A stretch of 57,074 bases of DNA from a virus. The notes beneath the pieces were generated by a model. That model had not been told where the DNA came from. It was given only the letters and a program-made list of their open reading frames with translations, and made no database searches. Where the stretch lies: UHGV virus genome UHGV-2195224; one strand, 5' to 3'. This document shows positions 41,885 through 52,566 of the stretch, in pieces (position 1 is the first letter of the stretch; each line of letters begins with the position of its first letter). A program made the position numbers and the translations under genes.

Positions 41885-42373
41885 TCAATCTATGAACACT
41901 ACAATTCTAGAATATATTTTTTCTATTTTTGATAAGTAGCACTTTTTATTTCCACCAGTCAGAATATATTGACTATAATCAGTCCTGAGTTGTCTCCATT
42001 CATCATGTATACTTTTATCTTTAATCCCCCCTTCACATAAAACCCATGCTCTCACTGCATTCTGGTATGCTGATTCAAGGTTTTCTTTCATGAAATATAG
42101 TTGTGCTTCATCATCAACTCGGTGAACAACAGCATTATACTGCTGTTTAACTCTTGTTTTAGCTATTCTATATTGTGTGGAATCCCAATTATCGGGCATT
42201 GCCTCAAAGGCATCCTCCAGCTCAAGTAAAGCTCTTTTAAACTCTAACTTTACTTTAAATTGCTCTTGTCTATTCCATGTGTTTAACGCCTTGCGTGCAT
42301 AACACAACGCCCCCAAAGACGCGATAGCCGAACCACAAGCCCCAATAGCAGACCACATATTCCAATCAATCAT
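41885..42373 (-). CDS. uncharacterized membrane-anchored protein (single N-terminal TM helix), AT-rich cargo
   Basis: 162-aa ORF with SD ggagg; MIDWNMWSAIGACGSAIASLGALCYARK...; between spanins and HNH/terminase. Confidence 0.5.
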   Translation of the reverse strand: MIDWNMWSAIGACGSAIASLGALCYARKALNTWNRQEQFKVKLEFKRALLELEDAFEAMPDNWDSTQYRIAKTRVKQQYNAVVHRVDDEAQLYFMKENLESAYQNAVRAWVLCEGGIKDKSIHDEWRQLRTDYSQYILTGGNKKCYLSKIEKIYSRIVVFID

Positions 42374-43424: not shown

Positions 43425-43751
43425 TTACTCCTTCGAGCTACCAAATTTGTTACCGATTACTCGCATTGCAGCCCCACGAATTGCATCGACACCAATCAGC
43501 CCAACACCGCCACCAATGGCAACAGAAAGAGATTTAGGCCATCCGACATACTCAAGAGCGGATGCAAAAGTCAGCGTCAGAGCACCACAGAGCAAAATCT
43601 CGAGCGTTTTTCGCTTCCACCCACCACCACCGCCAAAATAGGCAATACGCAATCCAGCCATAACAATCGACATAATCACTGCGCCCAGTGGTGTGTCTCC
43701 ACGCCACCAGCTCTGGACCAACTCCAGCCAGGTATTTGGGTTATGAGGCAT
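43425..43751 (-). CDS. holin
   Basis: 108-aa ORF with multiple TM segments, first gene after the tR-prime-like element and immediately upstream of the endolysin. Confidence 0.7.
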   Translation of the reverse strand: MPHNPNTWLELVQSWWRGDTPLGAVIMSIVMAGLRIAYFGGGGGWKRKTLEILLCGALTLTFASALEYVGWPKSLSVAIGGGVGLIGVDAIRGAAMRVIGNKFGSSKE

Positions 43752-43902
43752 TTGTAGTTATCTCTCACCTCGCTGATACAGCAGGTGCAAATTGAGGGAA
43801 CATCATGTACCGCAAATCAGAAGCGGAAACGTCAAAGAAGCCGAGCCAATGGATAACTGCGGAATAGGCCAGGACCAACGAATCCCCAGCCCCAGAGACG
43901 AC

Positions 43903-43956
43903 AAAACCCGCTCGACGGCGGGTTTAAGCTGTGTGGCGAAGTAACCACTCTTAACA
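43903..43956 (-). promoter_or_regulatory. conserved late-leader element including tR-prime-like hairpin (paralog of 781-834)
   Basis: aaaacccgctcgacggcgggtttaagctgtgtggcgaagtaaccactcttaaca, one mismatch to the prophage 1 copy. Confidence 0.45.
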
Positions 43957-44038
43957 CGATACAATAGTTTTTGCGTACGCGTTAGTGGTTATGTAAACTT
44001 TCTCCATATAAAAACAGCAAAGAAGCGGATATTTTGAA

Positions 44039-45067
44039 ATGGCTACACTGGACGCATTCAGTAGAGTAATAACTCATCATACTATTACGATCGATACACA
44101 ATACCGTACACAGAAAATTGATGATAGCATCAGATCGAACTGTGTTTGCCCAGTACCAACAATGCGTGAACTTGCTTCTAAAATAGTACATTGTAAAGCA
44201 ATGATGCACAGTTATGAAAAAGGAGACTTAGTTTTAACTTTACAAGATGTAATATTCTTATCAAACAGAGCCGATAAAAAACCCAGCCATCTTGGTCTTT
44301 TAATTAATGCTGTAGATAAAAATGGAAGCACTACTGTATTAAAAAACATTAATACAGATGTTCGCACCGAAATATCACCAAAACATGAGGAAGGTGAAGG
44401 TTACGAAGTTTCTTCTCATATGATTATTTCTCTAGACGGAAATATGCGAACGTATGACATGAGTTTTATGCCAATACCAGGAGTTTCCACAGCAAAAATA
44501 AATGGTTTCCTGAATAAAGTTCTCTTTAACGTAGCCAAAGATAATGAAGATATCTTTTCATGTAACACTTTAACAAATGAAGTATCAAGTTTAACAAAGA
44601 AAAAAATAAAAGTATTATACAAGCCAGTCTTTGATATATCTGGAAAGTTAGATGAAGATTTGTTCAATAAAATAAATAAAGAAGGACTTTCTGATGTCGT
44701 TTTGGTAAAGAATGAATACAGAACTATTAATGCGCCAGATGTTAACGCGGCTATTATTCCTAAAGAAAGTACTTTACGCTTAGTACCAAACCATGGCCCC
44801 AACAATGTCCTTGGATGGATAAAATCTGTCTCAAACTTCTTTAAAGAAGATAAAAATGGAGGTTATGACTTAATAAAAATAAAATTCAAAGAGCCAGAGA
44901 CAGGATTCACAAGACAAGTTGACCTTCAAACTTCAAATGTAAGGCTGGATGGGCTGGAAAAAACATTTATCAAAAAGAGTGTAATAAATGGTTTTTCTTC
45001 GCGCTTAAAGGATTCTTATGATAGTATTAACATGGAGTTTGTGAATAAGATTATCGAGGTCATGTGA
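44039..45067 (+). CDS. uncharacterized soluble protein (342 aa), first gene of an AT-rich antisense cargo operon between Q and the holin
   Basis: ORF MATLDAFSRVITHHTITIDTQYRTQKIDDSIRSN...; no recognised motif; weak SD. Confidence 0.55.
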   Translation: MATLDAFSRVITHHTITIDTQYRTQKIDDSIRSNCVCPVPTMRELASKIVHCKAMMHSYEKGDLVLTLQDVIFLSNRADKKPSHLGLLINAVDKNGSTTVLKNINTDVRTEISPKHEEGEGYEVSSHMIISLDGNMRTYDMSFMPIPGVSTAKINGFLNKVLFNVAKDNEDIFSCNTLTNEVSSLTKKKIKVLYKPVFDISGKLDEDLFNKINKEGLSDVVLVKNEYRTINAPDVNAAIIPKESTLRLVPNHGPNNVLGWIKSVSNFFKEDKNGGYDLIKIKFKEPETGFTRQVDLQTSNVRLDGLEKTFIKKSVINGFSSRLKDSYDSINMEFVNKIIEVM

Positions 45068-45074
45068 GGCTAAT

Positions 45075-45650
45075 ATGATTAGTATATTTTCACATTTATT
45101 TAGACCGTTTGGTTACCTTTTCATTAAGGGAATTAGTGGTAAGTGCGCATACGATTTTTATGCACCTGCCGGGCTTGCTGTGATTTCTTTTTTTTACTTT
45201 TATTTATTTAAAATACCTACATCAGACCTACTAAAAGATGGCGGCTTTATTAAGTCTATATCTGGATTTGTATCAAATCTGCCAGGTTTTTATATAGCAG
45301 CTCTTGCAGCAATAGCCACTTTCAACAGAGAACAAATTGACTACCCTCTGATAGGAACTAATGGCACTCCTTTTATTAAAATTACACGAACAAAAGAAAA
45401 TGGTAGAATTGTTGACACTCAAGAGAAACTTACCAGAAGATTATTTCTGTGCATGTTATTTTCATTTTTAACTGCCCTCAGCATATGCATAGTGATTTTC
45501 AACGCTTTTATCACACCACTAATAAACATACTGAATAATGATATAGCAAACTGGTGCTATATCATTATCTTTTTATTCCTTACATGGCAAATGCTTGTTT
45601 CAACATTTTTTGGACTATACTATCTTGGTGATAGGATTCACATTAATTAA
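45075..45650 (+). CDS. uncharacterized integral membrane protein (191 aa, about four TM helices), second gene of the cargo operon
   Basis: Starts 8 nt after the upstream stop with SD gagg; hydrophobic runs AGLAVISFFYFYLF, LPGFYIAALAAIATF, LFLCMLFSFLTALSICIVIFNAFI, WCYIIIFLFLTWQMLVSTFFGLYYL. Confidence 0.6.
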   Translation: MISIFSHLFRPFGYLFIKGISGKCAYDFYAPAGLAVISFFYFYLFKIPTSDLLKDGGFIKSISGFVSNLPGFYIAALAAIATFNREQIDYPLIGTNGTPFIKITRTKENGRIVDTQEKLTRRLFLCMLFSFLTALSICIVIFNAFITPLINILNNDIANWCYIIIFLFLTWQMLVSTFFGLYYLGDRIHIN

Positions 45651-46005
45651 CTACCATAATGGGGTTTATAGTTATTATTACACCGCTGATAAACCCCATG
45701 GCAGTCTGCAATTCCTTCCTAATTGTGCCATCTGAACATCTTCTCTTCTTGGCAATAGTGCGTAATGAGATACCAATAACAAAGTGAGCTATGATCAGCT
45801 CATATTCCTCTGGTTTATACTTTCGCAACCGAGCCACACAACCGTCTATCATGATGCCTTCATCATCATCACACTGGAGACGTGACTTTTTACCGTGTGG
45901 TAAAAGTCCCTTGAAACCAGCCGCTATCGGCTGCCAGTCCACACCACTATTTTCTGCTGCAGCCCATGCTCCCCAGCGGTCCAATACTTCATACATATCA
46001 CGCAT
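45643..46005 (-). CDS. late-gene antiterminator Q (paralog of quuD)
   Basis: ...[62 protein letters not shown]... Confidence 0.75.
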   Translation of the reverse strand: MRDMYEVLDRWGAWAAAENSGVDWQPIAAGFKGLLPHGKKSRLQCDDDEGIMIDGCVARLRKYKPEEYELIIAHFVIGISLRTIAKKRRCSDGTIRKELQTAMGFISGVIITINPIMVVN

Positions 46006-47019: not shown

Positions 47020-47817
47020 TCAATGAACGGTATCGAGCAGCTTTAACAGCTCAGGGAATCGGGATTCGAAGAAATGCGGCTGCGTCTCGCGCGGATTTGC
47101 GGGACTGGTGATGTTCTTGCCGAACATGCAGCCTTTCGCTGTCAGCGACCAGAATTTTTTGATGTTGTTAATCGCGGTACGGCTGTATCGTTCGCGTTGT
47201 TCAACTATCCCCAGCTTCGCCATCTGGTGATATGCCTGATTAGCCGTCAGGCAGATACCATACTGTTTCAGCAGTGCACTCAGTGACAGTGTCGGGCGAC
47301 TTGAGCCATCGTGTGCATCAGCAGGAGCATCAATGGCATAGCGCGGTGCCAGATTCGGTAAGCCAACAGCCTCCTGGAGTTTCTGACAGGCTCCAAGCAC
47401 TGAAGAGTTAGACAGATTTAACTCCCGGCGCATAAAGTCCAGCAGAATCACGCCAGCCTGCATCTTGTCAGCAGCCTGTCCGGATAACTTTTCCGGCGCG
47501 CTGGTTACCATATCGAAAGTACGGATCACCTTCAGATGGAATGACGGACTGATCCACATTGCATAGGCATACACCAGTTCCTTGCAGACATACGTCCCCT
47601 GGTTATTTCCGCCACGAATAACGTTAACTGGCTCTATATTGACCGAGTTGCAAATCTGCAACTCGCTTATTAAACGTTCAGTTTGCTCATTGCGGAGCCA
47701 GAATGCAGGCTTATGCTTATCCAGAGAACCGGCAGCCCTGTGCAGATCGTTCAGGCTGTAACGCCCATAAGCATCACGACGAACTTCAATACCATCAATG
47801 ACCATCAGATTATTCAT
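47020..47817 (-). CDS. KilA-N domain protein (antirepressor-like)
   Basis: 265-aa ORF; N-terminal ...IEVRRDAYGRYSLNDLHRAAGSLDKHKPAFWLRNEQTERLISEL... Confidence 0.55.
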   Translation of the reverse strand: MNNLMVIDGIEVRRDAYGRYSLNDLHRAAGSLDKHKPAFWLRNEQTERLISELQICNSVNIEPVNVIRGGNNQGTYVCKELVYAYAMWISPSFHLKVIRTFDMVTSAPEKLSGQAADKMQAGVILLDFMRRELNLSNSSVLGACQKLQEAVGLPNLAPRYAIDAPADAHDGSSRPTLSLSALLKQYGICLTANQAYHQMAKLGIVEQRERYSRTAINNIKKFWSLTAKGCMFGKNITSPANPRETQPHFFESRFPELLKLLDTVH

Positions 47818-51891: not shown

Positions 51892-52566
51892 ATGAAAACA
51901 ATCCATGACATCCGGCGGTCTAACGCCAGAAAACTGAGAGATGGTGTTGGCGGGAATTCTTCCTTTGCCACTATGATTGATCGCGAGCCAACCCAGACCA
52001 GCAGGTTTATGGGAGATGGTGCTACTAAAAATATCGGTGACAGCATGGCACGACACATCGAAAAATGTTTCGACCTGCCTGTCGGATGGCTCGATCAAGA
52101 ACACCAGACAACGAACATCACAAAAAAACCTGATGTTTCAATCACTAATAAACAAATCACATTAGTCCCTGTCATATCATGGGTACAGGCCGGAGCATGG
52201 AAAGAAGTTGGATATTCTGAGGTTGATTTGAGCACAGCAGAAACGTATCCCTGCCCTGTACCCTGTGGGGAAATGACTTATATCTTGCGGGTGATAGGTG
52301 ATTCAATGATTGATGAGTACCGCCCGGGAGACATGATTTTTGTCGATCCTGAAGTACCTGCCTGCCACGGTGACGACGTTATTGCATTGATGCACGATAC
52401 AGGTGAAACCACCTTCAAAAGGTTGATAGAAGATGGGACACAGCGTTATCTCAAAGCGTTAAACCCAAACTGGCCTGAGCCTTACATTAAGATCAACGGT
52501 AATTGCTCTATAATTGGTACTGTGATTTTCTCAGGAAAACCAAGAAGATACAAAATCAAAGCCTAA
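51892..52566 (+). CDS. cI: CI-type repressor (HTH plus S24 LexA-like domain)
   Basis: 224-aa ORF; C-terminal ...LRVIGDSMIDEYRPGDMIFVDPE... S24 peptidase motif. Confidence 0.85.
   Translation: MKTIHDIRRSNARKLRDGVGGNSSFATMIDREPTQTSRFMGDGATKNIGDSMARHIEKCFDLPVGWLDQEHQTTNITKKPDVSITNKQITLVPVISWVQAGAWKEVGYSEVDLSTAETYPCPVPCGEMTYILRVIGDSMIDEYRPGDMIFVDPEVPACHGDDVIALMHDTGETTFKRLIEDGTQRYLKALNPNWPEPYIKINGNCSIIGTVIFSGKPRRYKIKA

Follow-up and report, generated by a model that had tools for sequence, protein, structure and literature searches.

An operon opposed to the late genes

The virus genome UHGV-2195224, analysed here as a single stretch of 57,074 nucleotides (the window), carries within positions 44039-45650 a pair of genes, here called A and B, that lie between the gene for antiterminator Q and the holin gene. 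Gene A (44039-45067, plus strand) encodes a soluble protein of 342 amino acids (aa) with a predicted two-domain fold resembling RexA and RdgC, and is the proposed sensor and activator of the pair, while gene B (45075-45650, plus strand) encodes a 191-aa protein predicted to span the inner membrane with four helices, and is the proposed membrane-damaging effector. A first-pass annotation of this DNA had described two tightly linked open reading frames antisense to the late operon, and both sets of coordinates proved exact. It had also placed a Shine-Dalgarno sequence before B, which can be read directly from the sequence as GAGG at 45066-45069 (plus strand), and an 8-nucleotide gap between the genes, which measures 7 nucleotides (ggctaat) from the TGA of A to the ATG of B. 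Since the GAGG overlaps the stop codon of A and the gap is this short, translational coupling of the two genes is suggested.

The guanine plus cytosine (GC) content is 0.31-0.35 over approximately 44050-45700 and 0.50-0.58 in both flanks, in keeping with the earlier description of the pair as far more AT-rich than the backbone. With ~33% GC, stop codons should occur about once in 13 codons, so that the reading frame of A is not a product of chance (probability of a 342-codon frame ~1e-11, by our own estimate from base composition), and comparison of A with diverged alleles gives a ratio of nonsynonymous to synonymous substitution rates (dN/dS) of ~0.09-0.10. Genes A and B are confirmed as real. 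Across genera of the Enterobacterales, conservation of the A N-terminus begins at Met1, and M1, A6, R9, T12, H13, H14, D19, R23, C35 and P40 are invariant among the first 41 residues. The RefSeq PGAP call at an identical locus (L001 12463-13368) is a 301-aa protein that starts at an internal Met and omits window positions 44039-44161; because the N-terminal 41 residues are conserved, the 342-aa start is right and the RefSeq call is too short.

A promoter scan found no sigma-70 site scoring at least 9/12 on the plus strand upstream of A, and manual inspection of this region revealed only a weak TATAAA at 44007-44012. Within the coding region of B, a 14-bp inverted repeat (45535-45568) is scored on either strand as an intrinsic terminator, and antisense transcripts running on from the convergent Q operon might be halted there.

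Membership in the PDC-M53 family

When compared with PADLOC-DB v2, A matched the PDC-M53A model PDLC04696 (expectation value (E) 2e-31, residues 8-340 on profile positions 5-316 of 320) as well as three more PDC-M53A models, and B matched the PDC-M53B model PDLC04699 (E 1.7e-54, residues 4-190 on profile positions 2-186 of 188). All of the elements that define a PDC-M53 system were found, namely an A match, a B match and adjacent co-oriented genes with A upstream. Searches of Pfam, NCBIfam and the sequences in the Protein Data Bank (PDB) returned nothing for either protein, and in PHROGs both fall only in families of unknown function (B in phrog_8257). No paper in the library searched mentions PDC-M53, and the literature on Q-holin defence hotspots and on E. 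coli prophage defence arsenals yielded nothing specific to this module.

The family is large, with 609 homologues of B and, by profile search, 307 representatives of the A family at 50% identity, of which almost all are 310-360 aa long; A evolves faster than B. A genome scan with the B profile located 78 loci in Gamma-, Beta- and Alphaproteobacteria, and also in Nitrospira, Desulfovibrionaceae and Victivallales, and in 73 of these loci from other genomes an A-family gene lies directly upstream of B on the same strand. Among the five loci that lack the standard pair, three end at a contig edge and two are apparently frameshifted; at L039 (4862-5920) and L083 (4911-5944) B is intact but the A-family gene that precedes it appears to be in fragments, which may reflect a pseudogene or a sequencing frameshift. 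This obligate pairing and fixed gene order argue that A and B form one functional unit. One 2.2-kb contig assigned to an Erysipelotrichaceae metagenome-assembled genome (L028) encodes a B protein 100% identical to that of the window (tblastn, residues 1-191), together with an A gene that scores level with the closest enterobacterial homologue; mis-binning of an E. coli prophage fragment is the most likely explanation, not an occurrence in the Firmicutes.

By these profile matches the pair is a conserved operon of PDC-M53, a widespread family that PADLOC lists as a phage-defence candidate. The earlier view that the module belonged to a novel family has therefore to be abandoned, since both proteins are full-length PDC-M53 members and the family appears to include a validated relative in Pseudomonas.

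A characterised relative in Pseudomonas putida

That relative is RexABpp (PP_5643/PP_5644), an anti-phage system of P. putida prophage P1 in which deletion of either gene abolishes defence, so that both are needed (Rosendahl et al., Sci Rep 2026, PMC12894663). RexApp binds DNA, and its excess causes a RexBpp-dependent growth arrest with membrane permeabilisation, which identifies RexBpp as the membrane-damaging effector; RexApp is linked to lambda RexA by HHpred at 98%, and no HHpred link joins RexBpp to RexB (PMC12894663).

The two P. putida proteins were compared with PDC-M53 through their primer-derived termini and the protein mass, and not through full sequences. PP_5643 begins MHRTATFV and ends QSIIKSITALMV before its stop codon, and RexApp-His6 has a mass of 37.5 kDa (PMC12894663); in Pseudomonas, proteins of the A family start with MHRTATFVD and finish with INQSIIKSIIALMV, and one of them (P0307) with His6 amounts to 37.4 kDa. 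Likewise, PP_5644 begins MLIGQLAKPL and ends GLYYLGYKLQE before its stop, and the B partner at locus L066 begins MLISQLTKPLG and ends with the same GLYYLGYKLQE and stop. The L066 pair matches PDC-M53A at E 1.5e-149 and PDC-M53B at E 4.8e-71 in PADLOC. No entry named PP_5643 appeared among the homologues retrieved with the Pseudomonas A protein, so that the link rests on the primer-derived peptides and the mass; the matching termini and mass and the PADLOC matches of L066 make the assignment of RexABpp to PDC-M53 highly probable, if indirect.

Window B shares 40% identity with the B protein from Pseudomonas that was taken as a proxy for RexBpp (E 6e-30), and window A is only ~20% identical to Pseudomonas A (pairwise E 0.016), the two being joined via the family models, with PDLC04696 as the sub-model of the former and PDLC04694 that of the Pseudomonas proteins. 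The systems also differ in host and in setting, RexABpp lying downstream of a CI-like repressor and the window pair opposite to the late genes within the Q-holin slot. Furthermore, the defence phenotype is that of the Pseudomonas pair, and for the E. coli/Shigella branch it is a prediction.

Predicted structures and conserved residues

Protein A contains no hydrophobic segment (maximum KD19 = 0.70), consistent with its earlier description as soluble, and its model shows the two-domain RexA/RdgC-like fold. RexA and RdgC are its top two structural matches and also give its two longest alignments (158 and 163 residues); they are structural relatives of each other, and their kinetochore relatives are also among the matches of A. 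The Pfam RdgC model matched neither A nor any of 10 distant A-family members, so the similarity to RdgC is at the level of fold only. RdgC itself, a recombination-associated DNA-binding ring protein (PDB 2OWL), differs from A in acting alone, without a membrane partner, and in having the modulation of RecA, not phage defence, as its role. Protein A is probably dimeric and DNA-binding.

Among the four rival explanations that were weighed and ranked by estimated probability, the last holds that the resemblance of A to RexA and RdgC is a generic alpha+beta match and that the pair serves a function unrelated to phages, such as membrane-associated DNA metabolism or transport. This we regard as highly improbable, because the two best matches are also the longest and come with their own structural relatives, because the family appears to include in RexABpp a member with both an HHpred match to RexA and a defence phenotype, and because PADLOC lists the family, which is carried on prophages and mobile islands, as a phage-defence candidate.

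Residues conserved throughout the A family are R9, L88, N90, D93, E120, G121, S125, H127 (98%) and D234. They include a strongly conserved motif, L88-x-N90-x2-D93 plus E120-G121-x3-S125-x-H127, in which E-G-x3-S-x-H is near-invariant. Those between L88 and H127 lie on both sides of a loop modelled with low confidence (96-120), which has R or K at three positions in ~60% of family members and is a candidate surface for DNA sensing or for contact with B. These conserved residues are not obviously kept in lambda RexA.

The AlphaFold2 model of B (predicted local distance difference test score 86.8, predicted template-modelling score 0.82) is a four-helix bundle with helices of membrane length at 23-44, 58-82, 121-153 and 156-187, in agreement with the approximately four hydrophobic helices noted in the first-pass annotation, and with a beta hairpin (100-118) inside the loop between transmembrane helices 2 and 3 (TM2-TM3). 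Charged residues cluster in the N-terminus and in this loop, and from the distribution of Lys and Arg we infer that the N-terminus, the TM2-TM3 loop and the C-terminus are cytoplasmic. Near-invariant motifs of B are LPGFYIAALAAIATF in TM2, LTRR..L..F.FLTA, of which LTRR marks the junction just ahead of TM3, and GLYYLG, which closes TM4. Structural comparison of the models, a check proposed at the outset, placed A with RexA and RdgC, and for B a Foldseek search among viral models gave no significant match; the fifth-ranked match of B is a 165-aa protein of phage Sbash with a TM-score of ~0.4, which is not significant (E = 1).

Small inner-membrane proteins of prophages often block injection, as do those of the Sie and Imm type. 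With these as a general precedent, the third-ranked explanation proposes that the pair is a superinfection exclusion system that blocks DNA entry or else an addiction (toxin-antitoxin-like) module, in neither case acting by abortive infection. The latent toxicity of B under an excess of A does resemble toxin-antitoxin behaviour. Even so, a cytoplasmic 342-aa partner with the DNA-binding RdgC/RexA fold would be unexpected in an entry block, PADLOC and Pfam show no toxin-like or antitoxin-like domains in the pair, and the findings on RexABpp are consistent with an arrest of growth that follows infection, which makes both versions very unlikely.

Relationship to lambda Rex and to other two-gene systems

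Neither A nor B of the window matched the PADLOC RexA and RexB models, which lambda's own proteins do match. Comparison by hhalign of A profiles built from 31, 232 and 130 sequences with lambda RexA gave probabilities below 1%, and the best of all results came from a Pseudomonas-subfamily A profile, which aligned collinearly over 200 columns at E 0.063; in each case the RexA side held only one or two sequences, since the only relatives of lambda RexA found were 100%- and 76%-identical copies in viral contigs, and the homology test is therefore weak. The B profile against lambda RexB reached a probability of 0.5%, which is not significant. In these comparisons, then, sequence homology of the pair to lambda RexA/RexB was not detected. 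The RexA/RexB-type architecture recognised in the first-pass annotation stands as to gene arrangement, fold, family and a characterised relative, and does not extend to sequence homology with lambda Rex.

The likeness to lambda Rex lies in a soluble protein of ~30-38 kDa with the RexA/RdgC fold and, encoded directly downstream in the same order as in lambda, a small four-helix inner-membrane protein, as well as in prophage expression and in a presumed exclusion through loss of membrane function. Against this, A is 63 residues longer than RexA and B 47 residues longer than RexB, B has an extra beta-hairpin loop, and the S125/H127 motif of A is not conserved in RexA. Neither a location in the immunity region nor co-expression with the repressor was found for the window pair, which is not co-transcribed with cI from pRM.

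Prophage-encoded gene pairs that combine a RexA-like soluble protein with a four-helix partner in the membrane are also known from the actinobacteriophages Sbash (gp30/31), CarolAnn (gp44/43) and Butters (gp30/31), and each responds to particular genes of the phage that infects the cell. These resemble the window pair in architecture but come from different phyla, gave no significant sequence or structure match here, and in the case of Butters have reversed roles. Kiwa was weighed for its similar architecture as well, consisting of KwaA, a four-helix membrane protein, and KwaB (DUF4868), a soluble DNA-associated protein of ~310 aa; it was rejected, as neither a PADLOC Kiwa match nor a Pfam DUF4868 match was obtained.

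The example of Butters supplies the first-ranked of the rival explanations, in which A would be the toxic or antiviral effector and B would sequester it until infection. Butters gp30/gp31 is among the five Rex-like systems described so far and works with such reversed roles (PMC12894663), and the motif of A that lambda RexA lacks could mark an activity of its own. We nevertheless find this arrangement unlikely for the window pair, since in RexABpp the loss of either gene removes defence and the toxicity of excess A depends on B, and since B is the more conserved partner, as would be expected of the effector.

A swappable cassette in the Q-holin slot

The backbone around the pair is that of a lambdoid E. 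coli prophage. Antiterminator Q (45643-46005, minus strand; PF06530, E 2.8e-45, and so annotated by RefSeq at an identical locus) converges on B, the last 8 nucleotides of Q overlapping the 3' end of B. On the other side lies the lambda-family holin, the first late lysis gene (43425-43751, minus strand; PF05106, E 5.7e-25); endolysin, Rz and a DUF968 protein are further minus-strand neighbours. An S24-type repressor gene is found at 51892-52566, ~6 kb from the cassette, and scans of the whole window for tRNA genes and Rfam families found nothing.

Backbone homology (~93-96%) to E. coli prophages that carry other cargo stops at 43986-43996 (with L002 and L003, at 43986-43987) and restarts at 45680-45691. 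These borders define a swappable unit of ~1.7 kb (43986-45685, 31-35% GC) that comprises the region upstream of A, both genes and the final ~13 codons of Q; as the homology does not restart before 45680-45691, the C-terminus of Q comes with the cargo in each case (window 45643-45691). Between the cassette and the holin gene lies a conserved block of 96 bp (43890-43985, minus strand), invariant in five prophages with different cargo, that holds a hairpin, AAACCCGC-TCGAC-GGCGGGTTT (43905-43926), followed on the minus strand by the T-run TTTTGTCGTC. This block is presumed from its sequence to be the late leader with a tR'-like terminator. An insertion between Q and the pR'/tR' leader, as first annotated, is thus borne out in position by Q, the borders and the 96-bp block, the identity of pR'/tR' being presumptive.

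Four different cargoes occupy the slot across the compared prophages. The window allele is 100% identical to the module of E. coli VTB96816v; E. coli PF9285 and Shigella phage SfII (orf50/orf49) carry a second version, whose A and B proteins are 58% and 64% identical to those of the window; that of E. coli H22 is only 22% (A) and 26% (B) identical and still matches PDC-M53; and E. coli 720632 (L003 1845-2845) has an unrelated pair of overlapping genes, for proteins of 87 and 246 aa. This last cargo gave no Pfam match for either protein, the 87-aa protein has no PADLOC match, and the 246-aa protein has only a negligible one to DndH (E 0.003). Related prophages that lack the module, or that hold unrelated cargo in the slot, therefore exist, and the cassette behaves as swappable cargo in a Q-holin hotspot. 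The module is rare in the species, occurring in 24 of 5426 complete E. coli genomes, in all of them on the chromosome, with 15 copies at ≥99% identity and nine at ~67%.

Two further genes of the window were noted. A 162-aa open reading frame on the minus strand (41885-42373, GC 0.36-0.41) directly after the Rz/Rz1 genes has a hydrophobic N-terminus and no Pfam or PADLOC match, and it may be another moron. In addition, a KilA-N protein (47020-47817, minus strand) gave a short local PADLOC match to the candidate PDC-S22 (E 4.6e-6, 38 residues), probably because the two have a domain in common and not because the gene serves defence.

The pair in other mobile elements

Outside this genome the pair is found on temperate elements of unrelated types. 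In the serotype-converting Shigella phage SfII (L106 1465-3079) it occupies the same slot in the same antisense orientation, its two genes, orf50 and orf49, both being annotated as hypothetical. In Salmonella phage F1055 the pair precedes the holin gene in sense orientation; in a Vibrio tectivirus-like prophage it adjoins the integrase; and in a prophage of P. putida QH1 it lies between a serine recombinase and a tape-measure gene. Among 135 immediate neighbours are S24 and helix-turn-helix repressors, resolvases, integrases, methyltransferases, Type IIG and Type III restriction-modification systems, MADS, ArdC and housekeeping genes, and these neighbourhoods fit mobile defence cargo.

Such a distribution bears on the explanation ranked second, namely that the pair serves the life cycle of its own prophage through lytic/lysogenic stability, protection from ClpXP or the timing of lysis. 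The cassette does adjoin the late leader and the lysis genes and converges on Q, and lambda offers precedents. RexA stabilises the lytic or lysogenic state through its binding to DNA and to CI/Cro; its bias on the bistable switch does not depend on RexB, and RexB inhibits proteolysis by ClpXP/ClpAP (PMC11077077). However, the pair persists intact in very different settings, beside a tectivirus-like integrase, restriction-modification and MADS genes or housekeeping genes, and it is in sense orientation in F1055, so that a role tied to lambdoid lysis or to Q/S regulation is unlikely; related prophages also do without the pair or carry unrelated cargo in its place. We accordingly judge a function in the prophage's own cycle to be improbable.

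Proposed mechanism

Our preferred interpretation, which we consider likely, is that the cassette is a two-gene phage-exclusion (abortive-infection) module of the RexAB type, a member of PDC-M53 carried as a moron in the lambdoid Q-holin slot. Its proposed mechanism is based on homology with RexABpp and on analogy with lambda Rex, and it is by the same reasoning that we infer the defence role, the trigger, the A-B contact and the direction of signalling at this locus. In the lysogen, the A/B operon would be expressed from its own rightward promoter. Protein A, soluble, probably dimeric and probably bound to DNA, would detect an infection product of another phage, the candidates being intermediates of replication or recombination and complexes of a phage protein with DNA. 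Activated A, or an altered A:B ratio, would then engage B, probably at the basic cytoplasmic TM2-TM3 loop, whereupon B would oligomerise or open and the inner membrane would be damaged or depolarised. Growth of the cell would stop as a result of this damage, and the infection would be aborted.

A more far-reaching proposal, which we put forward tentatively and think unlikely on present evidence, is that the Rex superfamily has in PDC-M53 a large and previously overlooked core, to which lambda RexAB is a divergent outlier, that A is structurally midway between RexA and RdgC, and that the motif of A serves a ligand-binding or catalytic step. If there were such a step in A, the mechanism would differ from the classical model in which RexA binds and opens a RexB channel, and if PDC-M53 were the core of the superfamily, the E. 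coli and Shigella (SfII) alleles would provide a tractable coliphage system for the 70-year-old Rex problem.

Implications

Rex was the first abortive-infection system to be described. What is new here is a candidate E. coli/Shigella branch of this known Rex-type kind, and not a new defence family. The analysis gives a functional label, at the strength argued above, to genes annotated as hypothetical, including orf50 and orf49 of SfII, and it points to residues for mutation: R9, N90, D93, E120, G121, S125, H127 and D234 in A, and the LPGFYIAALAAIATF, LTRR and GLYYLG motifs in B. The native E. coli and Shigella members represent a Rex-type system that could be approached with standard coliphage panels. 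In addition, the cross-reference between PDC-M53 and RexABpp, to the extent that the indirect evidence for it holds, places a validated system in a family with hundreds of diverse proteobacterial members.
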